Positions 5,105-55,307 are shown, counted from the whole stretch's first letter. The stretch: DNA of 60,912 bases, filler included, from Stramenopiles sp. TOSAG23-6 (GCA_900128565.1; 11 parts of 11 records of this genome joined end to end with filler, not necessarily neighbours in it); one strand, 5' to 3'. Program-made: numbers and translations. The notes: generated by a model not told the origin, from the sequence alone.

Positions 5105-5207
5105 GTATGTATGTTTTATTTTTTTTTTAACAAAAAAATCGAATTTTTTTTTTATAAAAATTTTGTACCTAACAAATTTTTTTTTCAAATATTTTTCCAA
5201 AATACAG

Positions 5208-5405
5208 GGATGGAGGAAAATGAATATTTTGCTATGTGAAGGGGAAGAACTTCTAAAACCTGAAAGCAAACATGTATCGCATGATATTGTCGCTCTTGTT
5301 TTTTCATCATTCGATAAAGATAAAAGTGGAACTCTGAATAAATCTGAGATATTTCGTGCATTTCGTAATCTTGGTCAAATCTTGACTCAAGATGATCGAA
5401 ATTAT
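5208..5405 (+). CDS. Internal exon of an EF-hand protein, probably a different gene from HOOK
   Basis: FSSFDKDKSGTLNKSEIFRAFRNLG EF-hand loop, flanked by repeat introns. Confidence 0.6.
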
Positions 5406-5570
5406 GTATGTTTTATTTTTTTTTTTAATTTGAAATTGAATTTTTTTTTCGTACGAAATTTTGTACCTAANNNNNNNNNNNNNNNNNNNNNNNNNNNNNN
5501 NNNNNNNNNNNNNNTTAATTAATTAANNNNNNNNNNNNNNNNNNNNNNNNNNNNNNNNNNNNNNNNNNNN

Positions 5571-9298: not shown

Positions 9299-10993
9299 TC
9301 AGGCCCCCATGGCAAATAATAAAGGACACGGTAATTCTAAATCATTCTTCACTGCATCTAAATTATGTAAAACTCCCCAACCTGACGGCTTAGCAAATGC
9401 TGCCTGACAACTAAGCTGTTGAACTGCACGAAATTGTCGAGCAGCTTTATTCCTCCGTGTAGTATCTCCCAATTTATTTGAAACAAGTGCAATCAAATGA
9501 AGAACTCGTATCACATTTGTTACATCTTCGGCCACTACAAAACGTTGAAGTGCATCATCAAAGTTTGAAGATATTCGAAGCAGCGATTCTTTACATAATT
9601 GTTCGTCATCATTTGTCTGTTTCAAACCTAATTTCTTACTTAAAATCAACATTTCTGCCTCTGCAAGTCCACAAAATATTTCACCTTGAACATTTGGGAA
9701 ACAATGCTCCATGGCATATGGCATCACTGTTAACAATTGTTTTAAAGCTCTTTCTGGTGCCCCAAGACTGCAATGAACTTTTGCTAATGAAACAACACAT
9801 TCCGCATGCACTGATCGTAGTTGAAGTCGTTCACAAAGAGCAGTTGCTCGAAGAAGAGGCGGGACCGATGCGGCAGGATTAGATGGACTTACTTGATTCA
9901 TTACTGAAGCTAATAGGAGATATATGTGTATTGTAATAAATATGTTTTACATTTTGAAATTCGTTAGGTACAAAGTGTAACAAAAACAATTGAAATCTGA
10001 AATGAAGTATGAAAACGTATATGAACATTTTGTTTGTGAAGTCCATTTTTTGCACATAAAGGTAGCAACTGCTCAATGACAAAAACTGCTCTTTCATATT
10101 GACCTCTTTTAATCATTATTTGAACGGCACAATAGCAAGCTTCTACATATTTGGAAGCATTGTTAACAACATCACATTCACAAGATGGTAGTGATAAAGA
10201 TAATAACATTGATCCAATCGCTGAAGCTCGGCGCAGTTCGCCTTTGAAAACCGATCTTTTATGAAGTGCAACACATAGATTTCTTACCCAGCCCACAGGG
10301 GCACCAACAATAGGATACAACTTTCTGATTCTTAAAAGAGTAGTAATAGAAGCTTTATGCATTGACATTGAACTATTTTTGGTTTCATTCTTGTTCTCAA
10401 AAGTTGTGTTTTTATAGTGTTGATGACTCTCTAAAGTTGCCATGAGCATACTCAAACTAGTACCTGGTGCCTCACCACTTTCAAGACGAGCTAATTTACA
10501 TAAAGCAATACAATTTTCGAGAGAAGATTCCTTCTTTCCTGCATAGCAATGTAGTTTTGTAACCAAAGCTAACCGAGCTAGAGTTTTGTGACCAAATTGT
10601 TCCCATGCGTTTGATCTCATTAACTCCCTTTTACCACCGACGGCATCACCATACGAGTGACAAATACCGACTTTATTTGAGGGTCTTTCTCCCGTAGCTA
10701 ATGATTGATGATTACTTGTTGTATTAATTGAGTCTGAAGAAGGAACTGTTACGTCAAACGAACTGTGTAAAGTTTCCCAAACGTCTAATGGGCGCTGACT
10801 CCATCGATTCTCTGTATTCATTGTGCCACCACGAAATCGTTGATGTGAAGAATCCCGACCACCAACTGTTGTTCGATCATCGCATTTATTCCTATCAGAT
10901 GATGCTACATTACTACCATTATCACCATTACTTCGCCCATCATTTCTATCAGAGCTTCTATTTCGATAAAATTCATATCCTTTCGACTCTATC
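9299..10993 (-). CDS. ANAPC5: Anaphase-promoting complex subunit 5 (5'-partial; AT-AC repeat intron 9926-10020)
   Basis: TPR-like helices and VPPLLRATALCERLQLRSVHAECVVSLAKVHCSLGAPERAL..LGDTTRRNKAARQF, matching the APC5 C-terminus. Confidence 0.75.
9926..10020 (-). mobile_element. Repeat-family intron with AT-AC ends
   Basis: Minus strand CAT|ATACGTTTTC...GTACCTAAC...CAATACAC|ATA joins NVH to IYLLLASVMNQ in frame. Confidence 0.8.
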
Positions 10994-11140
10994 ATTAAAA
11001 AAATATATTTTTTTGTAAAATTTGTTAGGTACAAAATTTCNNNNNNNNNNNNNNNNNNNNNNNNNNNNNNNNNNNNNNNNNNNNTTAATTAATTAANNNN
11101 NNNNNNNNNNNNNNNNNNNNNNNNNNNNNNNNNNNNNNNN

Positions 11141-33268: not shown

Positions 33269-33490
33269 NNNNNNNNNNNNNNNNNNNNNNNNNNNNNNNN
33301 NNNNNNNNNNNNTTAATTAATTAANNNNNNNNNNNNNNNNNNNNNNNNNNNNNNNNNNNNNNNNNNNNTTTTATGTTTTTTTTTTTTTACCGAAAAAAAA
33401 AAAAATCGAATTTTTTTTTTTATAAAAATGTTGTACCTAACGATTTTTTTTTTTTCGGTAAAAAAAAAAAAATATTTTTCTAAAATACAT

Positions 33491-35285
33491 TTATTGTTGC
33501 TTCGCTGGAAAAATAGTGCTGATATACATTCTTCATTATCAGGCCCATTACTTTCCTCTATTGGACCACTTCTCTCATTAGGCGCCAACTTGGAGAATGA
33601 TAATGAAATAGTTCAAAATATCTGTGATTGTACTACTTGTTATTTACGCTGTGCTCCTTTATCTATTGCGAATTTTGTCGGACCAGACGGGAAATTTGGC
33701 GCAGTCCATGTATGTTTTATTTTTTTTGAAATTCGTTTTTTTTTCGTACGAAATGTTGTACCTAACAAATTTTAGTTTTTTTTTTTTTAATATTTTTTCA
33801 TAATCCATATTCTGGCTTTATTGAAACGAATGCTCTCCGTACGAAACGATGGTAAATCGTTGTTCTCAGATGTAGCATTGTGTGATATTGGTATATGCAT
33901 TACACAAACAATTAGATGTTTTGGCACTGGTGGGTCTAAATATAATGTCGATCAAATATACGTTTTCATTTCAATTTCGAATTTATTTTGTTTTTTTCAT
34001 ACGAAATTTTGTACCTAACAAAAAAAATCAAAAAAAAAAATATTTTTTCACAATATATTCTTTCATCGGATCAGTTACGTGATTTACTTTTTGCTGTTTT
34101 GCAGAGACTGGTCATTGGTAAGTATGTATGTTTTATTTTTTTTTTAACAAAAAAATCGAAGTTTTTTTTTTTATAAAAATTTTGTACCTAACAAAATTTT
34201 TAGAATTTTTTTTGAAATATTTTTACAAAATACATCCCGCCATAAGAGAGTCTCTTGTAATCGTATTTGCCCAACTTATTCATTCTCATGGAGTTGAAGT
34301 CTTTATGAACGTGATAAATAGTATGCAAGCTCCTCGTCTAGATGTTGCTGCAACTGCACGATATAGTGAGGTATCAGGGGATACTCCGAGTGCTCTTGTG
34401 TGTATCCTACGAGAATTAATTGAGCATTGCCCAGTCATTCATTTGGAATTTGATAAAAAAATAGTTCTTCTTGCTCTTGCTAAAATATTGGCCTCAGGTG
34501 ATGTTCGATGTAGAGAAATTTCTGTACCAGGTGATGCTCCTAGTCTCAAAGGTCGTACTAGAGCTGCTGCTGCTGCTGCAAAACTACGAGGCGAAAATGA
34601 AGTCGCAAATTTAGTTCCTTTTATTATCAGAGCATATGTGTGTTTTTATTTTTTTTTTTTTCCGGTAAAAAAAAATCGATTTTTTTTTTTTTGAAAATTT
34701 GGTACCTAACGTTTTTTTTCAAATATTTTTCCAAAATTTATGCTCTTCTCATCCGAGGATTAGTAGCTGCAAAAGCTGCTGCTGCTCTATCTACCCTAGA
34801 TGAAGATGAAGACGAGTGGGAGTTTGAAGATTCAGACGGCGAACCTTTCTCCGATGATGAATATGATGAGGAGGAAGACATTAGTGATAACGTATGTTTT
34901 TGTTTTTTTTTTTTAGTAAATAATTTTTTTTTTTTTGAAAATTTTGTACCTAACAATTTTTTTTTTTAAGAAAATTTCAAAATATTTTTCCAAAATACAT
35001 GACGATAGTAATGGGATGTTTGGAAATATTATGCTTTCGGAACTCCTGGAGATGGGACATCAGTCGGCAGATTCTTTAAATGTATCGAATCATAGAAATG
35101 TTTATGAGAGAGATGAAAAAAAATATTTAAGTGAAATTGACCCATTAAACGATGTATCACTTATTGAACAACTCGGTTTGTTCTTTCAAGCGTCAATTCA
35201 AAGTGGTTCACCGATGAAGGAATGTATTAATTATATTAGTCGTGCTGATCAAGAAGCTTTGAAGCGTTGCGAAATTCTTCATTGA
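33491..35285 (+). CDS. IPO9: Importin-9, C-terminal part (introns 33710-33808, 33958-34058, 34126-34235, 34638-34741, 34892-35000)
   Basis: LRDLLFAVLQRL..AIRESLVIVFAQLIH..KIVLLALAKIL..GRTRA, acidic loop, DPLNDVSL. The frame is restored by removing five introns that all end in AT. Confidence 0.82.
33958..34058 (+). mobile_element. Repeat-family intron with AT-AT ends
   Basis: CAA AT|ATACGTTTTC...GTACCTAAC...CAATATAT|T CTT gives DQILSSDQLRDLL. Confidence 0.75.
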
Positions 35286-35435
35286 AAATGGTGTTGAAAC
35301 ATCTTTTTATACATAATAAATTAGTTTCGATTATATTTAAAAGAGGTCACATCGTCTTTATTATATTAAATACGTTTTGCTTATATTTAGATAAGTGAAA
35401 TACGATATGCGTTTGTATAAATATGTTCTTTATAT

Positions 35436-38400
35436 TTAGATAAGTGACATACGATATGCGTTTGTATCATTTTCTTCTTTTGAAGACTTGCGATTTCGTG
35501 ATCTTTTTGATGCTTTAGGTGAAGAACGACCCAAAACAAAAAGTAGATCTGGTTTCAAATTTTCTTCCTTCATCTTTTTGTGAACCAATTCAAGCGACAT
35601 GCCTTTTTTATGCATTTTTGCAAACGCCTTGTATCTCTTTCTCTCCTTCTTTTTGCGCTTCTTTCGATTTTTTGGTGAAACAGGTTTCAATTTTAGTCGA
35701 GATGCCATAAGTTTCCACTCTGCAGAACTCTGCAATGACAATAACGAAGATCCTACAGCATTACACTTACGTAACAGTGCAGATTTCTGGTCTGATACCC
35801 ATTCAACCCAAATGCTCACAGCTAATGTAGCTTTAGCTATTGTGCCTCCTGGTGTTACGAGAACCAAATCATTTGTTTCTATCATACTACCTTGTCTTCT
35901 AGGTGTCGATGGCACACATACTTCGAAACAATTATTTGCAGATTTAACTTTGAAAATAGTCAGAGGTACTTGCAAAGTAAACAATAATGTCGCCTCCTTT
36001 TCATCATAAATTGTGCTATCACCAATTCTTTTAGTGTGTCCATTAAGAATAGGATTGTCTTCATTATCGATTTCAGTTTCACCTATGGTATTATTACTCG
36101 ACATCACATTGATTTTTACAATGCCGTCATCGTGTGATGTGGATATTAGATCACATTGCCTTATATTATAAGCAAATTTCAATGTTTTATTCCAAACAGG
36201 GTGAACTGTTCCGCTTTCAATTTGTGTGTGAAGACTTTTGGTGTCGTCGTTTGTATGTAATTGTGGAAAAACAACTGCAAAAATATTTGTACTTCCCTTC
36301 CAATTGGACTCATATACCTTTCTCGCCGATGCGATGTGAACACATAAATTAAGCGCATGTTCATTATCCTTTGGACAATTTTTGGCATGTTGTTCTTCTT
36401 CTTCCCAAAAGGCTTTTACTCGTTCTATAGGTGTATTCGATGCAGTTCTTTTGACATCGAATTCCTCCTTTTGGATTTTTTCTTCGGGTTTCATTTTAGT
36501 ATTTTCATCTTCTGGATCTTTTGTATTTTCATCTTCTGCATCTTTTGTATTTTCGTCATCTAAATCTTCAATAAGTTCACCTTCTGGATCTTTTGTATTT
36601 TCATCTTCTGCATCTTTTGTATTTTCGTCATCTACATCTTCAATAAGTTCACCTTCTACATTTTTTGAAAAGACCCGTGCAATATCTCCTTCCGACTTGT
36701 TGGTTTGTAATATTTCTGATGAGGGCACTTCGTCTTCATTGTCTTTTGTTTCGTTACTTAATTCTACTTCTAGGTCTATGTCATGTTTAAAACTTTCATT
36801 TTCCGCCGTTTTCATAACATCTTCACTTTCAGCTTTTGCAGAAAATCCAGTTTTAGTTTCGGTGTCTCCACTTGCTTGTTTTGCTTCTATTTCATCCACA
36901 GAAAATCCAGTTTTAGTTTCAGTGTCTTCACTTGCTTGTTTTGCTTCTATTTCATCCACAGCTATCGCATAGCCCACTTCTACATGTTGTCTTGTTTTCA
37001 AAGGTAGTCTTTCATTTGATTTTGTACCATCTGATTCCTCTTCTGCTTTTGTCTCAACTAATTCTTCTTTTGCTTTCATTTCTGCTTTTTCTTTTGCTTT
37101 CATTTCGGCTTTTCCTTTTGCTTCCATTTCTGCTTTTTCTTTTGCTTTCATTTCTGCTTCTTCTTTTATTTTCAACTTTGCCAAATTAGCGGCTTTCAAA
37201 TCAGATTCTTTCTTTATTCTAATGCGATTCATAAAGTTCAACAATGTCCGCTGGATCACAGAAGCAGCGAGATTATGAACATCACTAGATTTAAATGCCC
37301 CAATAGTACCAATTACCATAGCCCGCGAAGATGGACGAGATGAGAATTTTAGAATGGACTTACTTGACCGTTTACTTTTGAGAATTTCCATTGCATCTTC
37401 AAAGTCTACAACTCCAATGGTATCATCATTATCCAATGCAATGAGGTACATTCCCAGCTGAACTCCTTTCGCTTTGAGTACTGGTTCATTTAAAAGTCCT
37501 ACGGCAATATGGCTTTTAACTCTTAATCCTAGCCCCATAAAACCCGCGGCAAACAATGCACCAATTGGCCATGTTTCAATGACTACTTCTATTTCTTTGT
37601 GTATTCGATTCATTACACTTTTGACATCTTTATTTTCACTCGTATCAAATACATTGGGCCTTGACCACCGCATTGACAGTGTACCCACGGACTCGTCTAT
37701 TGTACCATGCTCTCTAATAGCAAGTATTTTTATATGTTGAATTCTTTCTGATGATACACCTGATAGACTTAATTTACATTCTGCGAATGGTTTTATAGTT
37801 TTCTTGACAGATTTACCAGAAGTGGAGTTACTATACGAAACATGCAATAAACGAAAATCGATTTCTGGTTGTTGTATTCCACTGCAACTGAGAAAAAAAT
37901 GTTTATTCCATGTTATATTTTTTGCTTTTGGTACTTTTTCTGTGGATGCAGAGAGTACTTCATCAGTCATCAAATTAAATTCCTCTTTTTCTGTAAAAGT
38001 AGTATTTTTTTCGCCCACTAAAAGTTTACAAATTACTTTGCGAGATTCTCTAAATAATGCTGGATTCGGAAGATTACTCGCACTAAATAAAGATACCCTA
38101 ATAATTGAACCAGGTAATGTTTTCTTGTTTTGTATATTTGCATCTCTCAATTCTAAAACTTGGAGACTTGCTGACTTCTTCCGGAAAATGGATTGGATTT
38201 TTACAACCGATGTATTATATGGATCACATTCAACAGCATGCGCGATTGACTTTGCCCACTCGATAATTTCCAATGGTGGCCGCATAGTAAATCTAATTTG
38301 TAGTTTATGCTTACGCTTTACTTTCGCTGTAGATAAGGATTGTATGACCTCGTGGTAATTACCGCTGGTTATATGTGAATCGCCGTTGATGGCATTAATA

Positions 38401-38731
38401 TACATTCCTAATTCTACGCCATTTTTTTCACATAAAAATGGCTCTCCATTTGACTTTAAAATAAAGCTCTGCACTCTGGCACCACGGCCTCCATATCCTG
38501 GCATAAGATTCATACCAAGTTTTTCACGCCTCTTTGTAAGAGTGACATCTATTGTACGCCCACTGCGAGGCGCCACTAAACAATGGCTAACTAATTGAGA
38601 AACAACGGCCTTCTGCCATGACAGCATCATTGAACAACCAGGGAGTATGAAGCTGTATGAGTCAGGTAATAAAGACATTATAGGAACATTGATAGCCCCT
38701 TTCGAAGAACGACATTTTTGAATGGCAGTAG
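35436..38731 (-). CDS. Large PDZ, IQ and C2 domain protein with acidic tandem repeats (5'-partial)
   Basis: Two PDZ-like units (KLGMNL..GVELGMYINAING; GVQLGMYLIALD), IQ motifs (VVKIQSIFR, ASVIQRTL), two C2-like units, and EAEMKAK and EDENTKD repeats. Confidence 0.7.
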
Positions 38732-38971
38732 ATGTATTGTGAAAAAAAGTTTAGTTGAAAAAATCGTTAGGTACGAAATTTCGTATGAAAAAAAAATAAA
38801 TTAGAAATTCATNNNNNNNNNNNNNNNNNNNNNNNNNNNNNNNNNNNNNNNNNNNNTTAATTAATTAANNNNNNNNNNNNNNNNNNNNNNNNNNNNNNNN
38901 NNNNNNNNNNNNAAATTTTGTACCTAACAAATTTAAGTTTTTTTTTTTTGAAATATTTTTCCAAAATATAT

Positions 38972-39845
38972 GCGGATCTGCAGATCTTACTCCATCCAAT
39001 ATTACAATGAACGAACATTGGGGTGGTGATTTTCAAAAATCAACTCCAAATGGTCGTTATATTCGATTTGGTGTACGTGAACATGCGATGGCAGCTGTTT
39101 GTAATGGCATGTATGTTTTTTTTTTTTTTTTTTACCGAAAAAAACAAATCGAATTTTTTTTTTTGGTTTCGTACGAAATTTTGTACCTAACAAATTTGAG
39201 TTTTTTTTTTTGAAATATTTTTCCAAAATACATGTATGCTTTTGGTGGAATTGTACCAGCATGTGCTACATTTCTCAATTTTATTGAATATGCTTATGGA
39301 GCAGTGAGGCTCTCAGCATTGAGTAAAATGTATGTTTTATTTTTTTTTTTTTTTGTATGAATTTATTTTTTTTATAGTACATTTTGTACCTAACGATTTT
39401 TTTTTATAGAAAATTTTGAAATATTTTTTTTTCGTACGAAATTTTGTACCTAACAAACAATTTTAGATTTTTTTTTGAAATATTTTTCCAAAATACATGC
39501 GTGTCTTATATATTATGACACATGACTCCATTGGTCTTGGTGAGGATGGTCCAACCCATCAACCTGTGGAAGCATTGACAATGTGTCGTGCTACTCCAAA
39601 TTTATTGGTTTTTCGACCTGCTGATGGTAATGAAGTTGCAGGATCCTATTTACAAGCTCTTTCATCTGTGAATTCACAAACACCTTCCGTATTGGCTCTC
39701 TCCCGGCAAGGGACTCCAATTCTTCCTGGATCATCAGCTTCATCTGTTGCTTATGGAGCCTATATCATTGATAAAGAAGAACCAAACACAGATGGATCTG
39801 CACCTGCATTAACATTTGTTGCATCAGGAACTGAAGTTGCTTTAT
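38972..39845 (+). CDS. TKT: Transketolase, internal exons (GT-AT introns 39111-39233 and 39330-39498)
   Basis: [47 protein letters not shown] and [18 protein letters not shown]. Confidence 0.97.
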
Positions 39846-39978
39846 GTATGTTTTATTTTTTTTTAAATTTTTTTTTTCTGTAAAAATAATGTTTTTTTTT
39901 CGTACGAAATTTTGTACCTAACAATTTTTTTTTTTTTTTTGGTAAAAACATTTTTTGAAATATTTTTCCAAAATACAT

Positions 39979-42143
39979 CTGGACAGCATCCACAGCTAGG
40001 GATCTTGTAGATGGCTTCAAACATTTTTGGGACGGCTCCAAGCTTTTATTTGCTGATATAAAAGTTGGTACGAAATTAGTTGGTCGTGTAACACAAGGAC
40101 ATTCTCTTACTCGTCGAGAACGCAGACAGTTAATACGCACAGTCAATGACGTCATGTTAATGGTTCCTGTATGTTTTATTTTTTTTTTGTTTTCGAAAAA
40201 AAAAAAAAAAAAAAATCAAATTTTTTTTTCGTACGAAATTTTGTACCTAACACATTTTTTTAGATTTTTTTGAAATATTTTTCCAAAATACATGTGTCTG
40301 TGTTTTTCTTAGTGCCATTTCTTGAATTTTTACTGCCCGTTGCCATCAAACTTTTTCCCGGGATGTTGCCGTCTACTTTCACTACTGAGTTGAAGCGACA
40401 GGAAAATATGAAGAAACAATTGTCTGCACGTGTCGCACTGGCAGGGTTTTTACAGGAAGCAACGACAACGTATGTTTTATTTATTTTTTTAACCGAAAAA
40501 AAAAAAATCGATTTTTTTTTCGTACGAAATTTTGTACCTAACAATTTTTTTATAATTTTTTTTGAAATATTTTTCCAAAATACACAATGGCAAATGATAT
40601 CAAGAAGAAAAAGTCTGGCGAACTTGCAGCTACGGCGTCTGATTTACTAGGTATTATTGAAAGTGCGCGTAATGGGGAACCAATGAGTAATGATTCTTTA
40701 CTAACCATGACACAAATGTATGTTTCAATTTGTTTCAAATTTTTTTTACATTTTTTTTTTTTTTTTATTAATTTTTTTTTTCATAGTAAATTTCGTACCT
40801 AACAATTTAAAAAAAATATATATATTTTTCACAATACATGTTTAAAGACGAAATTACATTGGGATCAATGCAACGTTCTCAATTATCTGCTTTATGTCAG
40901 TATATGGGTCTAAAATCGTATGGTACAGACGCTGTTTTGCGTGTTCGACTACGATCTGCCTTACGAACGATCAAGCACGATGATCGTCTGATTATGTATG
41001 TTTTATTTTTTTTTTTTCCGGTAAAAAAAAAATCGATTTTTTTTTTTTTGGTTTCGTACGTAATTTTGTACCTAACAAATTTTCAAAATTTTTTTTGAAA
41101 TATTTTTTCAAAATACATGTATGAAGGAATTGATTCTATGAATAAGGATGAATTACAACAAGCTTGTGCTGAACGTGGAATGCGTTCTACAGGTCTAACA
41201 AAATGGGGTTATAAAAGAATTTTACACGATTGGTTGGATTTATCAATTACACATAAAGTTCCAACATCAATGCTTATCCTTTCAAGGGCGTTAAATATTA
41301 CTGCCAAAACTGAGCGAATGGAAGCTATAGCTCAATCTCTTGCGGGCATGGATGATGAAGTTGTTAAAGAAGCTGTCCTGGAAGCAGCTGTGGACAATTC
41401 ACCTTCTTTAAAGCTTGATACACTACGTATACAACAAGAATTGATTGAAGAAGAACGTGAGCAGGCTGAATTCATTGAAGAAAAGAAAAGAGAAGCAGAA
41501 GAGGCGGAATTAATTAAAGAAAAGCAAATGGAGACTTTAGAAGCCGATGTTTCTGTTATGACTCCTGATGAATCTCTACAAGACATATCAATATCAGAAA
41601 AAGATACATCTATTAGTCTTGAAACTATTATTGACAGAGAACGAAGTAAAGTTGTGAAAGAATCACGAAAAGAAATTGATGATGCGATCCAAAGAGATAA
41701 AATTAGAGATGCAAAGGAGGCTTTAACTATTGATCCATCGGAGATATTAGTTGATCCAGCAGCGGCGACAGTACTCGATGATAAGTCAAACACTGTAGAC
41801 AATAGAAATAACAATGATAAAGATGATGAGGAAGAAAAAGCATTGGATAAACTCAAGGCATGTTTTATTTTTTTTTTTCAATTTTTTGTCAATTTTTTTT
41901 TTCATAGTAAATTTTGTACCTAACGATTTTTTTTATTTTTTTTACGAAAAAAAAAAAAAATATTAATTCACAATACATGCATCTGATTTAGAAGTATTGA
42001 ATTTATTAATGTCCGATTCTGCGATGGATGCAGAGAGAGGTCGAGTTGCTGAAATGCTACTTCAACAAGAAAAACTTGAAAGGGAAAGAGTTGAAGATGA
42101 AGAAGAAGAATTGCAGGAACTTGCGAATGTCTTGGAAGAACAT
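39979..42143 (+). CDS. LETM1: LETM1/MDM38 mitochondrial inner-membrane protein, partial (introns 40169-40293, 40470-40585, 40718-40839, 40996-41118, 41858-41978)
   Basis: KHFWDGSKLL..LTRRERRQLIRT..VP|VSVFFLVPFLEFLLPVAIKLFPGMLPSTF, DDRLI|MYEG and ELQQACAERGMRS. Confidence 0.95.
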
Positions 42144-42293
42144 GTATGTTTTATTTATTTTTTTTTCGTAAAAAAAAAATTGAATTTTTTTTTTTTTTTT
42201 TTTTTTTTCGTAAAAAAAAAAAAAAATTTTTGTACCTAACAATTTTTTTTTTTTTTGGTAAAAAAAATTTTGAAATATTTTTTCATAATTCAT

Positions 42294-43718
42294 TAATATT
42301 GGAGGTACAGCTTCTGCAGGCAAAGGAGGTTCGTTTTTTTTTAATACGTTTGATGAGAGATTTATGCTCAAAACAATTAGTTTAAAAGAATTGAAAGTTT
42401 TAGAAGAATTAATTGAAAATTATCCTCAACCAAAACTGAAAAATAATAATAATACCCGATTTGCTTATATAAGAAGACAATATCAAAATGATCCCAAAAA
42501 TAATCAAAATATAGATTCGAACCGCGATGATTGGACACTTTCTTATACAGATTATGTATGTAAACATCGACATGTAGGTTTTATTTATTCAATGTATTAA
42601 TTTATTTCAATTTTTTATCCATTTTTTATCCATTTCAAAAATGTTTTTTTTNGTTTTTTTTNCATTTTTTTTTTTGAAATTTCAAACCTAACAAAAAAAA
42701 AATAAAAAAANANAAATAAATAAATACAATACATGAATCGTTATTGATGAAAATTGTNGGTTGTATCACATTAACAATGAAAGAATATGGCCATCATAAA
42801 CAACATTTCTTAATCTGTTCAAATATTTTCCCTCCAACGTGTATGTTTTTTTTTTTTTTCAAATTTTTTACCTAAATATTTTTTTCATAGGAAATTTTGT
42901 ACCTAACAATTTTTTTTTTTTTTTTTACGGAAAAATTTTTTTTTGAAATATTTTTCCAAAATACATCTGTTGAATATGTTGATGAAAAATATGACTTAAA
43001 AGGTTCAGTCATAAATCGTGGATCAAAACAACCAGCCGTTGGAACGAGACAGGTTTGTAAGCATTGTCATAGAGGTTTTACTGTTGTAGATGTACGTTTT
43101 TTTTTTTTTCAATATCNTATTCCAAATAGTACGAAATTTTCATACAAAAAAAAAAAAAATATTTTGTATTTTTTTTTCAATACCACAAAATTTTCATACA
43201 AAAATTTTTTTATTTTTTTTATTTTTTTTATTTTTTATTTTTTTTGAATTTTTTGAATTTTTTTTTTCACAACACATGTCAATCCAATTGAATTATATAA
43301 AAAGCATGTCGCCACTCGATTAGAAAAGTTAGCATCATGTATGTTTTATTGTTTTGAAAATTTGAAATTTTGGAAATTTGAAATTTTTTTTTTCGTACGA
43401 AATTTTGAAAATTTGAAAAGTTTTTTTTCGTACGAAATTTTGTACCTAACGTTTTTTTTAGATTATTTTTTTAAATATTTTTCCAAAAATACAGTAGACG
43501 ATTGGAATGAAAATTCAAGAAAATCAATTACCTTACATTTAAGTGAAGAAGATCAAATTATTTCTACTGANAACCCTATCCCTAACCACTATCTTTATAA
43601 TAATAATAATAATAATAATTCAATTGATGTGGATATTGAAAGCAACAATAGTAGACATCATAACAGAAACATTTCAATAGATACGAAATATTGTATCCAC
43701 AATGAAAATAATACTACA

Positions 43719-43749
<31 letters not shown>

Positions 43750-44250
43750 CAAAAGACAAAAATTCATGTCTGTTTTATTTTTTTTTTTAAATTTGAAATT
43801 GAATTTTTTTTTTTTTTTTGTTTTTATAAAAATTTTGTACCTAACCCTAAATTTTAGTTTTTTTTGAAATATTTTTCTAAAATAAATGTCAGACTTTGTT
43901 CCATAGAATATTTTGTGGATTTTGTGGAATATTTCAAAAAAAAAAAAAAACATTTTTTTAAAAATTCTGTAGTATCAAGAGAAAGAGCATTATCAGCTTC
44001 AAATGTATATTGTTCCGCTGGTTCAAGATATCATGAACCGAGTACGTGTAACCCTAACCCTAATTTTCAATTTTATGTTTCATACGAAATTTCGTACCTA
44101 ACTAAAAAAAAAAAAAAAAATTAATGAAAATTAACGAAAATTAATTTTTTTTTGAAATATTGTTTCACAATATTTTGGTACTTTTGAAAGATAATGACTT
44201 AAAAAATCGAATTATACTTAGTAAAAAATCTGTTACTCATTTAAGGAGAA
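42294..44250 (+). CDS. Phosphatidylinositol-phosphate kinase (PIP5K family), multi-exon, partial
   Basis: SAGKGGSFFFNTFDERFMLKTI, SLLMKI, SNIFP, EKYDLKGS and TLKDNDL. Confidence 0.85.
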
Positions 44251-44447
44251 TATATGTTTTATTTTTTTCAATGTTTTGTCAACATTTTTTTTTTTTTTTT
44301 TTTTTGGTAAAAAAATTTTGTACCTAACAATTTTTTTTAGATTTTTTNNNNNNNNNNNNNNNNNNNNNNNNNNNNNNNNNNNNNNNNNNNNTTAATTAAT
44401 TAANNNNNNNNNNNNNNNNNNNNNNNNNNNNNNNNNNNNNNNNNNNN

Positions 44448-44679
44448 CTTAGAAGTATTGAAATGGTTAAGAAGTCAAAATCCACCTTGTCCATGGAATG
44501 AACTGACGTGTAGTGAAGCAGCTAAATATGGTCACTTGGAAGTATTACAATGGGTAACAAGTCAAAATCCACCTTGTCTGTGGGATGAAGGCACATGTAT
44601 TATTGCAGATGCAAAAGGTCACTTGGAAGTATTACAATGGTTAAAAGAAGTAAAAGCACCAGGATATCAAAATTATTAG
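44448..44679 (+). CDS. Ankyrin-like repeat protein, C-terminus (5'-partial)
   Basis: Repeated LEVLKWLRSQNPPCPW..AAKYGHLEVLQW. Confidence 0.75.
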
Positions 44680-45078
44680 TATTTCAAACTCCATTGGGTT
44701 CAAAGAGTATATTATATATATGATATACAACCGAATTAGCTAATAATAAAATCATGGTAATATATTTAAAATTTAAATGTATGATATATATAATTGTAAT
44801 AAAACTATAATCTATGATCTTCTCAGACGTATTTGAGTAATATAATTTACTATATAATTGTAATATTTTATAGATATGTACAAAACTGTCACATTTATGC
44901 TCTCCCTTTTTATTTTTCAGAATATGATGGCCTTCTTTTTTTTTGCAAGTTCGATTAGAGATGCATTTGAGATTGATGATTTCAGTTCGATTGAGTTGTT
45001 AGTTAAATAATTTCAAATTTCGAAATTGGTATTTTTATTATCAAATCTTAAAAATGAATAAATGAATGAGATTCTCAA

Positions 45079-47630
45079 TCATTTCATACCTCTCATTTTT
45101 TCTTTTTCATCTTCTTGTTCTTCTTTTATTTTAATTGATTCCCAATCGACCGAGACTTTCTTATTATATTTTTGAAAATTCGAATCTGTTTCTTTCTTTT
45201 GCCGTGTATTGTAAAAAAATATTGTAGAAAAAAAATTGTTAGATACGAAATTTCGTACGAAAAAAAAACAATTTAAAATTCATCATGAAATACGTACGTT
45301 GTTCCAAGTAATTTTGTCGGTATCCTACAACTGTATCTACATGTGTTTGATTCTTAGTAGCTAATTTTAGTGCTCTTTTCCATCGAAACAATCGAATATT
45401 TAATTTAATTGCTCTATATATCATGGGTGGGGATGCTTGCAGCAAAATATTTTCGGCTTCATCAATGGCACCCCGATACACAGCTAATTCGGCATTTCTT
45501 CTTTCTTCAACTGGTATACCTTTCATATACAAAACAAATTGTAGTTTTGCCATTTCGGAAACTTTTGCAAGAGCTATTTCAGCAGTGCTAAGATGTCTAC
45601 CCCACAATGCCATTGAAGCTAGTGCAGCCCAAAGTTCCTTCCTTTTCACAAATCTACACAATGTATTGTGAAAATATTTTTTTTGTAACAAAATTTGTTA
45701 GGTACAAATTTTCGTACGAAAACAAAATTTAATTTGAAATTTAATTTTGAAAACGTACATCGAACAGCTTCATTCCACTGCTGCTTTACAATAAATGCAT
45801 ATAATAATGGTGGATACGGTGATACTGAAGCAGTAACAATGGATCCATCAGATTTTCTTACTGTAACCCGGGAACCAAAGTTTGAAACAATAAAAGGATG
45901 TTTACCAAAGCTTGCCGCATCACTGACAATTTTTGTTTGTTCAAGTAAGTCTTTATCCACATAAACGCTATGTGGATAAACCCATGTAACAAGTTTACCA
46001 TCTGTACAAGCAGAGAGCATGAATTGTAAAAAAATATTTATTTTTTGTAAAATTTGTTAGGTACAAAATTTTCATAGTAAAAAAAACAAATTTTGAAAAA
46101 AAAAACATACATGTCAGAAGAATCATTCCATTCTGATGTATCGCACATGGTGACAAGCTTTACTGGTTTTTGTCCCAGTTTTACGACATAAAGATCACGA
46201 TTTGAATCTACAAAAGAGATCATTGGATCTCTAGACTTTGTAAATTGACTCAAATCTAATTCTTGGATATCACGTGAATGCACTATAGGTTTACCTCTAG
46301 GTTGTCCTGTGTGTACATCAAACACTATGAAACTTTTACGCATCGACGAATTGAGAATTGCTATTTTGTCTGCACTGAGGGATATAGCACGCTCATTCAG
46401 CATTTCTGCGCGCAATCCTTTAAATCTAGGATTAGACAAAACACGACCTTCATAATTATATACTTGAATGCCAGCAATAGCATTCACCATTACGAACAAA
46501 CAATCACTTTGAATAATCATTGTTGGAGGATGTCTTAAATCAAATATATGCGGCGTGTTATAGTTATCCACAGAGTAAATATGACATTGAGAAGATGTAG
46601 TCACAATTAAATGACCAAATGCAATAGACATGTCAATCACACGGCTACGGAAATCAATTTTTTCACTGTTTTCAGTCATGCAATTCATTACTTCTATTCG
46701 ATTTGCATCGGTTAGAGTCACTTCAATGTTTTTCCATTCCAAACGTCGATTGACCAAAGTACTAATAATAACACTCCCAACGCCACCGGCACCAGCACAG
46801 CTTGTACCATCATCAGTCCACGCCAAGCGTAAAAGTGAACCACTCTGAAGTCGAGATCTTGAATAAGACCAACCTGTTTGATCACAGAGCCGAAGTAAGT
46901 TATATGATCCAACAGAAAAACATTCACCAGTTGGAGACCAGGCGATAGAAGTAATGACATAGTCAAATGGGGCACTCGAGTACAAAAGACGCCCATATGA
47001 ATCCCACACTTTATATTTACAGTCTTCACCACATGAAATAATCTTACCATTCACTGGATTCCAGTCTGCTTCAGTGACAATACCATCGTGCGCTTTCCAT
47101 TGAAGATGTTTCCGATCAATCTTTGTTGTTTTTATTAACAAATCCCGACCCTGGGTAAATAAAAGTTGATCATCATTAGGTGCCCATCGTACACTATATA
47201 TTGGATGTTTTGATTTCATGATTGTGGCTCTTAACTGTCCCGTGCGGGAAAAAGTTTTCACTGCTCCATCCTCACCACCAGTTACAATTACATTTCCTTG
47301 AAAACTCCAACGAACGCAAATGACAGCACCACGATGAGCTTCAATTTTTTTTTCTATACGACCAGATTTATGTATCAGACAAAACGAACCATCTGTACAC
47401 CCGGAAACGAACATATCTGCTACCATATTATGTGTTGTAGGCTGCCAATGAAGACTTGTTACATAAGTGTTAAATGTAACTAAAGTTGGTTTGAGGAGTT
47501 CTCCACTGGTTGACCACAGGCTGATTGTTTTATCATCTGATGCTGCAATTACTTCATTATTTGGAGTAAATTCAACTGCTGATACAACTTCGTCGTGATG
47601 CCGCTGTACTTTTGCAATATCAAGTCGCAT
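45079..47630 (-). CDS. IFT80: Intraflagellar transport protein 80, complete, 4 exons (introns 46019-46110 GT-AT, 45661-45758 GT-AT, 45204-45297 GT-AC)
   Basis: WD40 repeats WKAHDGIV..WNPVN..SCGEDCKYKVWDSYGRLLYSS, RLCDQTGWSYS; spliced EAVR|LCRFVK and YLEQ|RQKKETD..VDWESIK. Confidence 0.96.
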
Positions 47631-47933: not shown

Positions 47934-49115
47934 ATGTCACATGCTGTTCGTACAGCAAAACCAAAGTTAAGAAATAGAAAAAAGAATATAGGCATTCCTG
48001 GAAGCCCTATCGGCCCAGGTCTAATTGACGACAATGGGATATATTCAAGTATGCGTAGCTTACTCTCTCAAGCTTTCGATGATTTTGACACAGACAAAAA
48101 TGGATATATAGATGCCGAAGAACTCGAAAACCTCTGTAAAATGTTAGGCTCTAGACTATCAAAACAGCAAGTAGAAGAATTACTTCAGGAATTAGATACT
48201 AATAGAAGTGGTTCCGTCGATAAAACCGAGTTTATTGCGTGGTGGTTGAATAAAAAAAACGAAGCTAGAAGGAAGTTACGAGCAGAAAAACTTGGTACAA
48301 AGCCAGGCAAAAATAGATCTCAAATGTACAGTACACATCTACTACCGCAACTCCCCGGAGCAGCCCCGGTACGATTATTGGATGCGAGACGCAATCGAAA
48401 GTTGACAGACCGAGATACTGAAATGTTAAGAAATCGTGTAAAACTTTTAAAAGTAGAAGAACTCAAAACATTAAAGCGTATATCAGATGCAAACTACCAA
48501 GCTGCTAAAATATTTAAGAGGAAACAAACACAGACAAATAAAATGATGCGGCGAGTGGAAAACGCGAGAACAGAACTAAAGAGAAATAGGACAGCACAGG
48601 AGCAAAACTATGTATGTTTTATTTTTTTCAATTTTTTATCTAATTTTGTTTTCGTACTAAATTTTGTACCTAACGATTTTTTTTTGAAATATTTTTTCAC
48701 AATATATGTCAAAAAAGAACTTGCCAGAATTTCTAAATTGAAAGCAGCTCGAGCAGTGGTAGCACGAAAGAATGCAGCTGCTCAACATATAAAAAATGAA
48801 AGAAAAAGATTGAACAACATTAAAAAACAAGAAAATGATCAATTGAGATCAAAGAGATCTAAAAGAAAAAAACAAATTTTGTCGATCCGTCAAAAAGTCT
48901 TTGAAGAAAAGTTGAAACGAGAAGACGAAAGAGCCGAACAAGCTGAACTTGTCTATTTATCGAGAGTAATGCACGAACAACAATTACAGAGGGAAAAGGA
49001 ACAGACTCTTCGTGAATTAGAAAAAAGAGAAGCTGAATTAATTGGTAGATTACAAAATGCACACTTAATGCAAGAAGAAGCTTTACATAGTCTAGGTCGT
49101 GTCTTGACACAATAA
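47934..49115 (+). CDS. EF-hand pair and coiled-coil protein (in-frame 96-nt GT-AT intron 48612-48707)
   Basis: DTDKNGYIDAEE and DTNRSGSVDKTE. The intron reads through as VCFIFF..FVPN..KYFF. Confidence 0.8.
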   Translation: MSHAVRTAKPKLRNRKKNIGIPGSPIGPGLIDDNGIYSSMRSLLSQAFDDFDTDKNGYIDAEELENLCKMLGSRLSKQQVEELLQELDTNRSGSVDKTEFIAWWLNKKNEARRKLRAEKLGTKPGKNRSQMYSTHLLPQLPGAAPVRLLDARRNRKLTDRDTEMLRNRVKLLKVEELKTLKRISDANYQAAKIFKRKQTQTNKMMRRVENARTELKRNRTAQEQNYVCFIFFNFLSNFVFVLNFVPNDFFLKYFFTIYVKKELARISKLKAARAVVARKNAAAQHIKNERKRLNNIKKQENDQLRSKRSKRKKQILSIRQKVFEEKLKREDERAEQAELVYLSRVMHEQQLQREKEQTLRELEKREAELIGRLQNAHLMQEEALHSLGRVLTQ

Positions 49116-49876: not shown

Positions 49877-50011
49877 NNNNNNNNNNNNNNNNNNNNNNNN
49901 NNNNNNNNNNNNNNNNNNNNTTAATTAATTAANNNNNNNNNNNNNNNNNNNNNNNNNNNNNNNNNNNNNNNNNNNNAAATTTTGTACCTAACATTTTTTT
50001 TTTTTTTTAAA

Positions 50012-52487: not shown

Positions 52488-55307
52488 TTAATTACATTTA
52501 CTTGATTGTACAATACAAACTTTACCTTGTTTTGTTCCATATACAAAACCCATGCCTGGTTTTGGATGAAAAAGAGCAATATTTATATCATCATTGACTT
52601 TTTTAATAGTATTAATAAATTTCATATCTGATGTTCTTACAATAGATGCAATTTTACGATTTTCATTACCCGGTACACCACCATCATTACGTCGTTCATT
52701 ACTTCTTTTTTGATATCCTACAATAATAAAATGACCTGTTGGTGAAAATTTCACGGATGTTATTTCTTTTGCATTTTTAGGTGATACTTTAACTGAAGTA
52801 TATTGTGAAAAAATATTTAAAAAAAAAAAAAAATGTTAGGTACAAAATTTCATACAAAAAAAAAAAGTTTGAAATTGGTAAAAACTATGATATGAAAAAA
52901 AAAATGATGGTATAGGGTTAGGGTTAAAAACGTATATAATTTCACGTCTTTCTTCTCCATTCAATGAAATGACGGCTATACAATATTTTCTTTCACAACA
53001 TTGATTTCTTTCGCTAAATTCTTGAGATTCTGTAGTTTCTGTTGAACATGTTTGTGCCACATTATTATTTATTGTATTCTTTGAAATTTTTATACCAGAA
53101 ATATTTGGACTTTTCCTTTTTTTAGGTAATTTTATTTTTATTTTTGTTTGTTTTTTTTGATTATTATATTTGTATTCTTGTTGATTACGAATAGGGTTAC
53201 TATCAAAATGTATTGTAGGTATATTATCATTTTGATTTCGTTTTTTTCGTTTTGGCCATGACATGGATTTTCGTATATTTCGTGTTTTTTCAAAGTCTAT
53301 TGAAGAAAATTTAATTTTATTATGAAAATGTCTACAAAAATATTCAGAAAATATATTTGCATTATTTACACATTTTGGTATAGAATAATAAAAATTATTT
53401 ACTGTACGTTGATTTGGATTATATACTATATTACAAATTGGAAATTGGATTTTTGGTTTCACCATTCGAAATGGTGTTGGACTAATACTACTACTTTCAT
53501 ATTTCGTGTTTTCATGATTTTTTTTTTTTTCCCCAAAACGTTCCAAAGACAATTTTTTTTTTATTTGTTGTTTTGATTTTTTTTGTTGTTTTGTTTTTTT
53601 TTGTTGTTTTGTTTTTTCAGTAGTTGGTGTTGTCACTTTATATTCAGACAAACCTGTTTCTGTTTCATTATAATGGGGTATATAAGCATGAATAGTGAAA
53701 CGTCCATTTTTAAAAAGATGTGGTTTTTCACCATATAATTTGAAATGCAATTGATATTGAATACTCAATAACATTTCATTATTTATATTGACTTGTTTTG
53801 CAGTTGGAACAAAATTGGCAAAAGCAAATGATTCATCATACAAACAGTTTCGTTCCATTTGAACTTGATTACGTAACAAATTATTATACGAAAAAAACCA
53901 ATCCTCAATAGCTTCATTTGTCTTATTCACGTCAATACAAGCAACAAGTATTGTGAAAAAATATTTCAAAAAAAAAAAATTAAATTTGTTAGGCACGAAA
54001 TTTCGTATGAAAAATTAAAATTTCAAAAAAAAAAAATTAAATTTGTTAGGTACGAAATTTCGTATGAAAAATTAAAATTTCAAAATAAATAAATAAATTA
54101 GACATTCATATAAAACATACAATACAGCTTTCAGAAGGATGAATACCAAAGCCACCATCATTATAGAGTAGAGCATGATCAACAATAACTTGTTTATTTG
54201 ACAACACAAATTGATTTGTAATGTCATTATTACAATATTTCGTGTTTTTTACATGTTTTGTATTTTCACAACGTTTGGATTTTGGAATTTCAATTTCTGT
54301 TTCCAAATCATTCATAGTAATACCTATAGATTGTAAAGCATATATTTTGGAAAAATATTTCAAAAAAAAAATCTAAAAAAAATCGTTAGGTACAAAATTT
54401 TTATAAAAAAATAAATTGAAAAAATATTTCAAAAAAAAATCTAAAAACATTTGTTAGGTACAAAATTTCGTACGAAACCAAAAAAAAAAAATCGTTTTTT
54501 TTTTGGTTTAAAAAAAAAATAAAATAAAACATACATGCCATCGACGTATCCGTGAATTATCATAATTAAATGAATAAAATCCAAAACGAGCTTTACATTG
54601 TGGACATTCTAAAACACCTGACGATTTTGGAATTTCAAGAATTGCTGAACATTTCATTCCACTTCCAATTTTGTTTTCAAAAGTATGTAAAGGTGGATAG
54701 TTTATTTTTTTTTCAAATTCATTATTACATTCATTTGGTTCATTTGGTTCATTTAGTGTATTATCAAAATGTCTATTTGAATTATTATTTGAGTTCTTAT
54801 TTAAAGTATTATTTGAGTTATTATTTGAGTTATTATTTGAGTTCTTAGGAGTATATTCCCAAATTTCACCTTTACATTTTACAAAATTTGTAGCTGTATA
54901 ATCTTTACTAATTAATCTATGTAATACATTTGAATAAGGAACTGGAGACACTTCAGATCGAATGACTGGTAATTCTATTGGAACATTTAATTGATTTTGT
55001 TTTTCTAAATGTAATTTTGTGAGAAATGCATCGATTGAAAAATCATATAGTGTAAAGTATATATCAAATTTAATATTTGTTTAGATTGTATTGTATATTT
55101 TTTTTTTTTTTTTTCAAATTTCAAAATTTTTTTTTTTTTTTAAATTTCAAAATTTTTTTTTTTTTAATTTTAAATGTCTAATGAAAACGTATATATTTCG
55201 TGAGTTGTACTGTATTATTCGGTACCGGGTCTCCCGTTACAGGTAATGTTGTTTCACCTACAATCAAAAACTGTCCAGATGGTGGAAATTCAACACATCG
55301 AAATGCA
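52488..55307 (-). CDS. AMBRA1: AMBRA1-like split WD40 protein, multi-exon, 5'-partial
   Basis: FRCVEFPPSG, LLYNDGGFGIHPSESCI|VACID, ITSVKFSPTGHFIIVGY and DINIALFHPKPGMGFVYGTKQGKV. Confidence 0.7.
53946..54120 (-). mobile_element. Repeat-family intron with apparent GT-TT ends (TT duplication) and a doubled core
   Basis: TGT ATT|GTATGTTTT...CACAATAC TT|GTT GCT TGT, in frame (SCIVAC). Confidence 0.65.

Follow-up and report, generated by a model that had tools for sequence, protein, structure and literature searches.

The stretch of DNA analyzed in this study (the window; 60912 nt) is made up of 11 independent contigs of 5470 to 5411 bp, which are ordered by falling length and joined artificially by linkers of the form N44-TTAATTAATTAA-N44 (5471-5570, 11041-11140, and so on); contigs that are adjacent in the window are therefore not genomic neighbors. 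The G+C content of the window is 22-37%. The region studied comprises contig 7 (33369-38812), which carries an IPO9-like gene; contig 8 (38913-44347), which carries exons of transketolase and LETM1; and part of contig 9 (44448-49876), which carries IFT80. These genes are interrupted by copies of one short repeat, and the ends of the resulting introns, most of which do not finish with AG, are the subject of this report. An earlier note on this DNA had claimed that nearly every intron is a copy of a single repeat and that the 3' splice site is mostly not AG, with GT-AT dominant; both claims were borne out by the copy counts, identities, and intron ends presented below.

Repeat family and its copies

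When each TACCTAAC was listed with its flanks, one recurring element emerged, GTATGTTTTATTTTTTTT .. AAAAAAATCGAA .. TTTTTTTCGTACGAAATTTTGTACCTAAC .. TTTTTTTTGAAATATTTTTCCAAAATACAT. An nhmmer profile built from 17 copies gave 68 matches at E<1e-3, which merged into 63 elements; 57 of these are unique once the mirror half of contig 3 is dropped, and they are found on 10 of the 11 contigs at a density of about one per kb (57 in about 55 kb). The earlier note had proposed a genome-wide count with such a profile, and the figure of 57 unique copies is the count for the window. Contig 3 (11141-16600) is a perfect palindrome with a fold point near 13870, and its plus-strand copies recur on the minus strand; whole-genome amplification seems to have produced it as an inverted chimera.

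Thirty-four complete copies that lie inside reading frames were curated on the basis of family likeness and frame continuity, and because family likeness was used, introns of other kinds would escape this set. The curated copies have a median length of 109.5 nt (range for the family, 92-195 nt) and a median pairwise identity of 74%, with a maximum of 95.8%, compared with 45.7% and a maximum of 62% for shuffled copies put through the same alignment procedure. The element is short and non-coding, occurs at high copy number in many genes, and has the sense orientation in the copies seen.

The family consensus can be written GTAYGTTTT ... TTTGTACCTAAC ... TTTYCAMAATAYAT, and the parts of the element follow one another in the order GTAYGTTTT, a T-run, an A-run, TCGAA, a T-rich portion that includes CGTACGAAA, TTTGTACCTAAC, a T-tract, and TTGAAATATTTTTYCAMAATAY plus two bases. 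At the 5' end of the 34 copies, position +1 is occupied by G (31) or A (3), with T at +2 in 33, A at +3 in 31, G at +5 in 33, and T at +6 in all 34; the complete GTAYGT site is present in 26/34 and a GT start in 30/34. The branch-like motif TACCTAAC (CTAAC) lies 32-74 nt from the 3' end. The 3' block has C at -10 in 28 copies, A at -9 in 34, A at -7 in 32, A at -6 in 33, and T at -5 in 33, followed by A at -4 in 30, C (26) or T (7) at -3, A at -2 in 31, and T (28), C (5), or G (1) at -1. A small hairpin, TTTGAAA-TATT-TTTCCAAA, often stands before the last six intron bases.

A minority of copies begin with A (ATACGT or ATATGT). Three of these are complete, namely, an AT-AC intron on the minus strand at 52798-52935 (ATACGT..ATATAC; frame open 359/102 codons), a second AT-AC intron on the minus strand at 9926-10020, and the plus-strand copy at 33958-34058, so that two of the three end in AC and one in AT; two others, at 16791 (-) and 44252 (+), are cut short. 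Short telomere-like runs (CCCTAA / TTAGGG) were seen inside some introns (44049-44065, 52900-52920, 21835-21950, and 20262-20275), and in two copies they stand directly after the 5' splice site.

Exact removal and intron ends

When the 34 curated introns were cut from first base to last at the family-aligned ends, the reading frame stayed open in every case. The resulting end pairs were GT-AT (23 introns), GT-AC (3), GT-TT (3), AT-AC (2), AT-AT (1), GC-AT (1), and GT-AG (1); that is, 33 of the 34 introns have a non-AG 3' end. Six further copies are cut by contig ends, and their family-aligned 3' ends are ACAT four times and ATAT twice. The proposal in the earlier note of relaxed 3' recognition or a new splicing route follows from these ends.

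Exact removal was shown at nine junctions, three by RNA and six more by gap-free homology (three in IFT80 and three in LETM1). On the minus strand of contig 9, IFT80 intron 1 (46019-46110; GT..AT, ending ..ATTCAT; 92 nt) leaves the product NDSSDM/LSACTDGKLVTW (a slash marks the junction), which aligns without a gap to P0002, NDSSDMLSAICDGKLVTW, and to nine other homologues. Intron 2 (45661-45758; GTACGT..ACAT; 98 nt) leaves EAVR/LCRFVK, and RLCR[FY]VK is found in 10 of 11 homologues. Intron 3 (45204-45297; AC/GTACGT..ACAC; 94 nt) leaves LEQ/RQKKETD, which is equal in length in 10 homologues; use of the in-frame AG 12 nt downstream would drop 4 residues. With all three introns removed, the junctions DM/LSA, VR/LCRF, and LEQ/RQKKET are therefore gap-free against 10 of 11 homologues, and the R/LCRF (GT-AT) and Q/RQK (GT-AC) junctions that the earlier note had named stand.

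The eleventh homologue, P0001, is the annotated IFT80 of the closest relative (compared with 45079-47630), and it is wrong at all three junctions. At the first, its translation runs into the intron (MYVFFFKIY); at the second, 14 residues are lost upstream and R-CTFVK takes the place of RLCRFVK; at the third, an AG 12 nt too far downstream was used and four residues were lost. These errors appear to have arisen because canonical sites were forced on the gene model.

For contig 8, contigs from four seawater data sets, three metatranscriptomes and a DNA metagenome, were aligned to 38913-42651. In run X8, a polyA seawater metatranscriptome, record 17 (221 nt) aligns in three pieces, with 0, 1, and 0 mismatches, to 39037-39103, 39231-39327, and 39497-39549, and record 21 (212 nt) aligns to 40872-40993 and 41117-41206. 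With four bridging letters included, these two contigs correspond to the exact removal of 123, 169, and 123 nt, which are the plus-strand elements at 39111-39233, 39330-39498, and 40996-41118. The first is a GT..AT transketolase intron, at which record 17 joins 39103 to 39231 across the four bridging letters; the cut position is ambiguous through a shared 8-nt sequence, CATGTATG, and the junction is the NGM/YAF example of the earlier note. The second, a composite transketolase intron (two copies; GT..AT), is spanned by the join of 39327 to 39497; shifts of -2 to +1 would yield identical mRNA, and the product matches solved transketolases. The third, a GT..AT intron of LETM1, is skipped where record 21 joins 40993 to 41117.

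Four LETM1 junctions are gap-free against 15 homologues, one of them also being the junction seen in RNA. The first is that of the intron at 40169-40293 (+; CT/GT..AT/GT; 125 nt), whose removal gives LMVP/VSVFFLVPFLEF and bears out the VP/VSVF junction put forward in the earlier note. Here CT closes the exon and AT the intron, and a cut shifted by two bases would put H in place of a proline that is conserved in 15/15 homologues; the homologues thus demand the GT-AT cut. The next intron (40470-40585, +; AC/GT..AC; 116 nt; frame open 68/71 codons) falls in a variable stretch in which the aligned M is kept. Removal of the GT..AT introns at 40718-40839 (+; 122 nt) and 40996-41118 (123 nt) gives TQM/FKDEITLGSM and DDRLIM/YEGIDS, respectively, both without gaps.

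Independent DNA evidence was obtained from run X3, a seawater DNA metagenome from another study. Its record 2 covers 39209-39353 unbroken, including an exon and both flanking element ends, and keeps ..ACAT/G. The earlier note had held that its reading would fail if DNA showed AG where the assembly has AT; this contig keeps ACAT. The same note had envisaged a comparison with transcripts, and the X8 contigs do skip three copies exactly, the comparison consisting of two shallow contigs. As to depth, in the seawater DNA run and in RNA runs X5 and X9, values over parts of the element reached thousands to tens of thousands, with 0-7 over exons, and in X8 depth was below 60 across 38913-42651; depth sums all contigs and organisms and hence is not a copy number.

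One copy on contig 8 does not behave as an intron. Removal of the plus-strand element at 39846-39978, where the sequence switches from transketolase to LETM1, leaves no continuous frame (open length, 9 codons), and 39663-39912 is without cover in any metatranscriptome or metagenome run compared. This copy probably marks a chimeric join of a transketolase exon to mid-LETM1 through the repeat rather than a real intron.

Use of nearby cryptic AG acceptors was considered and rejected for most introns. In 27 of the 34, the 30 nt to each side lack an in-frame AG, so that such acceptors are ruled out by frame, and for IFT80 intron 3 they are ruled out by homology; moreover, 12/34 introns skip an AG that lies 10-17 nt past CTAAC. 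A second ambiguity concerns the position of the cut. In 23/34 copies the last two bases of the exon are identical to the last two of the intron, and a cut two bases upstream at both borders would therefore yield an identical mRNA. This -2 shifted reading is possible in only those 23 of 34 copies; it gives eight different end pairs, and AT-AC in only 11. As a general reading, AT-AC is thus possible for only 11/34 introns, and it is contradicted at LETM1 40169. It is only with GT first that a single rule covers every copy.

The statement in the earlier note that GT-AG is rare holds for the curated set (1/34). There are three AG-ending candidates, at 19496-19673, 43339-43494, and 5105-5207. The first, which the earlier note had named, remains a candidate. 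The other example that it had given, 5105-5207, is ambiguous: in this HOOK-like gene (5105-5211, +) a doubled 5' GTAT allows 5105-5207 (GT-AG) or 5109-5211 (GT-AT), of equal length, and the two readings differ by one residue (G or V).

The plus-strand IPO9-like gene of contig 7 (33371-35000) contains six family copies, at 33371-33490 (truncated at its 5' end where the contig begins), 33710-33808, 33958-34058 (AT..AT), 34126-34235, 34638-34741, and 34892-35000, and its joined exons form one open frame of 424 aa. Its six exons are separated by five complete introns and preceded by one truncated copy; the copies end in CCAT, ATAT, ACAT, TTAT, ACAT, and ACAT, and one starts with AT instead of GT. 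The claim that all five IPO9 introns end in AT was confirmed, and it extends to the truncated copy. For the exon used as query, a word-indexed search for longer proteins gave no match and a full HMMER search gave only 2 matches; against the sole homologue found, P0227, 2/5 junctions are gap-free and 3 adjoin small gaps. Further family introns on the plus strand of contig 8, identified by family alignment and frame only, lie at 41858-41978 (GC..AT), 42144-42293, 42841-42966, 43339-43494 (GT..AG), 43768-43887, and 44042-44175 (GT..TT). On contig 9, a coiled-coil / EF-hand-like open reading frame (ORF) contains a GT..AT intron of 96 nt (48612-48707, +; ending ..ATATAT; frame open 254/135 codons). 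The minus strand of contig 7 carries, at 35439-38750, an uninterrupted 1104-aa ORF that encodes long acidic repeats and a single C2 domain and whose first intron is a family copy cut by the contig end.

Origin of the family and route of removal

The copies probably constitute an introner-like intron family that is transposon derived. Twelve of 21 contig ends are no more than 60 nt away from a family copy, as would be expected if the assembly broke at a high-copy dispersed repeat. The element has imperfect inverted ends of 4-9 nt (GTAT..ATAC), such that a GUAU/AUAC stem with a 2-nt 3' overhang can form; this end stem is present in 18/34 minimum-energy folds and absent from the homology-validated IFT80 introns. 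The 2-nt direct repeat formed by the ends of exon and intron (23/34) exceeds the permutation mean of 17.1 (p = 0.0026); of the nine introns with an ending other than AT, two show AC/AC and two TT/TT. Such a repeat fits a target-site duplication, in which case the last two intron bases would be the second copy. The transposon derivation proposed in the earlier note is well supported by copy number, inverted ends, direct repeat, and assembly breaks, and it is not proven.

On balance, we favor the view that this introner-like family, in a host near MAST-3, is removed by a spliceosome for which a 3' AG is dispensable. Each copy brings with it a yeast-like 5' site (GTAYGT), the branch-like TACCTAAC, a T-rich tract, and the conserved 3' block. 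The excised stretch starts at the first G and extends two bases beyond the conserved ..AATAY; these final bases are AT in most copies and AC, TT, or AG in fewer. In many copies they match the two exon bases upstream of the element, as a target-site duplication would, and loss of the element together with one copy of the repeat would restore the original reading frame. The spliceosome would have no need for G as the last base, and the 3' cut would be set by the conserved 3' block or by distance. Yeasts have strict U2-type signals that resemble GTAYGT, TACCTAAC, and the T-tract. Since these three features are U2-like, and since TACCTAAC also occurs inside AG-ending introns (19496-19673 and a truncated copy at 49977), we infer that the copies are removed by the spliceosome. 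A more specific version of this view is put forward tentatively, as one that is possible but less likely than not: the spliceosome of this lineage would have dropped the 3' AG rule, a ruler from TTTYCAMAATAY plus 2 nt would place the cut irrespective of the identity of the final two bases, and a transposon whose target duplication supplied both of these bases would have exploited that freedom and filled the genes.

Several observations weigh against removal by such a spliceosome or against the transposon origin. The support consists of DNA, RNA contigs, and homology; an Rfam scan of the window gave 0 matches, hence no small nuclear RNA (snRNA) gene in these 11 contigs, and a tRNA scan of the window found none. 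The RNA contigs are shallow (depth, 2.4 and 2.6) and come from one metatranscriptome only, and all three RNA junctions are AT/AT, so that alone they cannot tell GT-AT from AT-AC; 40169 is the sole validated junction that separates GT-AT from the -2 shifted reading. Twenty-eight of the 34 introns entered the set on frame evidence alone, and among these, homologue alignments later checked three LETM1 and two IPO9-like junctions. The putative branch site is distant from the 3' end (median, about 43 nt), its role being assumed. Since end pairing is absent from the validated IFT80 introns, it may be a relic that removal does not require. The direct repeat spans just 2 nt, the window's 11 contigs showed neither an autonomous transposon nor an empty site nor a copy in antisense, and scans of metagenome contigs with P0002 and with a 22-nt element core gave no matches.

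A serious rival, albeit an unlikely one, is removal by a minor (U12-like) spliceosome whose snRNAs coevolved with the element, in parallel to the transposon-linked U12 expansion of Physarum. It would account for a first base that is G or A (31 and 3 of 34), for the final C of two of the three A-start introns, and for a last base that is free (T 28, C 5, G 1), as in U12-type introns; positions +1 to +4 read RTAY, as in RTATCCTT. Splicing of AT-AN and GT-AT introns is described for the U12 type (PMC1557818). The fit fails at +5 and +6, which are GT and not CC (+5 G in 33/34, +6 T in 34/34), giving the consensus RTAYGTTTT rather than RTATCCTT. The association between the +1 and -1 bases is weak (p = 0.05, n = 3), and a T-rich tract follows the branch-like motif, as it does in U2-type introns. 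The U12 branch site is usually 10-20 nt from the 3' end; distances of 45 nt or less have also been given. Here, TACCTAAC is found 32-74 nt from that end, in place of a TTCCTTRAC motif close to it.

We regard as distinctly improbable a removal without the spliceosome, in which a structure joining the intron ends would act as the guide, as proposed for the nonconventional introns of euglenids. The pairs G+1:C-3, U+2:A-4, A+3:U-5, and U+4:A-6 can form in 32, 29, 33, and 24 of the 34 copies, respectively, short direct repeats are present at the junctions, and the +n/-(n+2) register is the same as that in Euglena, for which CAG/CTG pairing at +4..+6 / -8..-6 has been given (PMC4770533; PMC11282704). 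However, the pairing amounts to four weak base pairs, and the 4-bp stem, although found in 18/34 minimum-energy folds, is missing from the validated IFT80 introns and from GTACGT and ATACGT copies. The introns also have a strong conventional 5' splice site and a conserved branch-like motif and T-tract; the host is a stramenopile and not a euglenozoan, and the pairing is explicable as a leftover of inverted repeat ends.

Very little probability attaches to the proposal that these are ordinary old T-rich introns with very strict splice signals and not copies of a mobile element. The best conserved blocks (the 5' site, TACCTAAC, and the 3' block) could indeed all be signals, TACCTAAC is present in AG-ending introns too, and every copy seen has the sense orientation. 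Against this, the likeness spans the whole element, including AAAAAAATCGAA, CGTACGAAATTTT, and TTGAAATATTTTT, which have no known signal role; pairs of copies reach 90-96% identity; the assembly breaks at copies (12/21 contig ends); and seawater DNA depth over elements is hundreds to thousands of times that over exons, all organisms in the run being summed.

Least credible of all is removal from the DNA itself, as for the eliminated sequences of ciliates, or an assembly or amplification artifact, with the seemingly spliced RNA coming from element-free DNA: the 2-nt direct repeats and inverted ends do resemble those of TA-bounded eliminated sequences, and amplification chimeras do exist here (palindromic contig 3 and the transketolase/LETM1 join), but the explanation is made unlikely by the independent DNA contig X3 record 2, which holds an exon with both flanking element ends, while no element-free DNA form is present among the joints listed and stramenopiles are not known to have two kinds of nuclei.

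Host and relation to known intron families

Judging from its protein matches, the host is a marine heterotrophic stramenopile close to MAST-3. The best match to IFT80 exon 1, P0001, has 96% identity and is labelled GSMAST32; P0002 follows with 79%, there are many others, and the next named matches include oomycetes at 47-48%. A diplonemid host had been suspected from the TTAGGG-like runs and from the nonconventional introns of diplonemids, and it was rejected on the basis of the 96% GSMAST32 match, with oomycetes next. Nonconventional introns of marine diplonemids have been described from single-cell genomes and are unvalidated without transcripts (PMC12621601; PMC10161547; PMC6221363). On the same protein evidence, the host is not among the lineages that the earlier note had named for mass non-canonical introns (Fritillaria, Amoebophrya, and euglenids).

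Like the introners of Micromonas, Aureococcus, and dinoflagellates, the family has numerous short copies that are non-coding, nearly identical, and found at unrelated positions in genes; the copies bring splice signals of their own, have inverted ends and a short direct repeat, and are excised exactly. Introners usually keep GT/GC-AG ends, and those described in Aureococcus use canonical splicing motifs (PMC7789003), whereas only 1/34 introns ends in AG here and the direct repeat measures just 2 nt. The family also resembles that of Amoebophrya, a marine protist with repeated introns that have inverted and direct repeats and lack GT-AG ends. More than 60% of Amoebophrya introns are described as non-canonical, with inverted repeats of 8-20 nt, direct repeats of 3-5 nt, and no dominant end dinucleotide; in contrast, the 5' end is almost always GT here, with a full GTAYGT, and the 3' end is of one class, A/T and then T/C.

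The U12 expansion of Physarum polycephalum is comparable in that an element bearing inverted ends plus a direct repeat of 2 nt has been proposed as the source of a mass gain, with G or A at +1, a variable last base, and GT-AT among the end pairs. In Physarum introns RTATCYTT is kept, the branch motif TTTGA stands 9-12 nt before the 3' end, and the ending is AG or AC in most; the family described here differs in its GTAYGT 5' site, its branch-like motif far upstream, and AT as the main ending. With euglenids and with hemistasiid and eupelagonemid diplonemids it shares a non-AG majority, pairable ends in the +n/-(n+2) register, and direct repeats at the junctions. The nonconventional introns of these groups are reported to lack a conserved 5' GT or U1-type site and to have variable borders (CT-CG, TG-GC, and others, each below 12%), unlike the conserved borders and U1-type 5' site seen here in a stramenopile host. 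In Fritillaria borealis, the majority of the standard introns have given way to non-canonical introns that are thought to derive from miniature inverted-repeat transposable elements and are probably removed by a U2-type spliceosome; there the splice sites are described as highly divergent, whereas here only the 3' end departs, and does so uniformly.

A literature search found no report of such introns in MAST-3, although supplements may bear on this point. The main text of the MAST single-cell paper uses the word intron twice, both times in the methods, and mentions no unusual introns (PMC5778133), and a large plankton genome paper is silent on unusual introns in MAST-3 (PMC9903769). Repeat-derived non-canonical introns are already known from Amoebophrya, Fritillaria, hemistasiids, and Physarum; what appears new is the lineage, together with the uniform GT-AT rule.

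The 3' AG is among the most constant of eukaryotic gene signals, and the few lineages that break it on a large scale have messy and variable borders. A clean break, with a normal 5' site, a conserved branch-like motif, and one main non-AG ending, is therefore a good natural case for the study of how the 3' cut is chosen. If the ruler-based version proposed above is true, abundant uncultured ocean grazers would harbor a natural system with one uniform non-AG acceptor rule, and that rule would explain the failure of gene prediction in this group. In one published set of MAST-3 assemblies, predicted genes are few (3289 and 2694 in about 19 and 21 Mb, respectively; PMC5778133); we suggest that the gene catalogues of these grazers may be systematically damaged.

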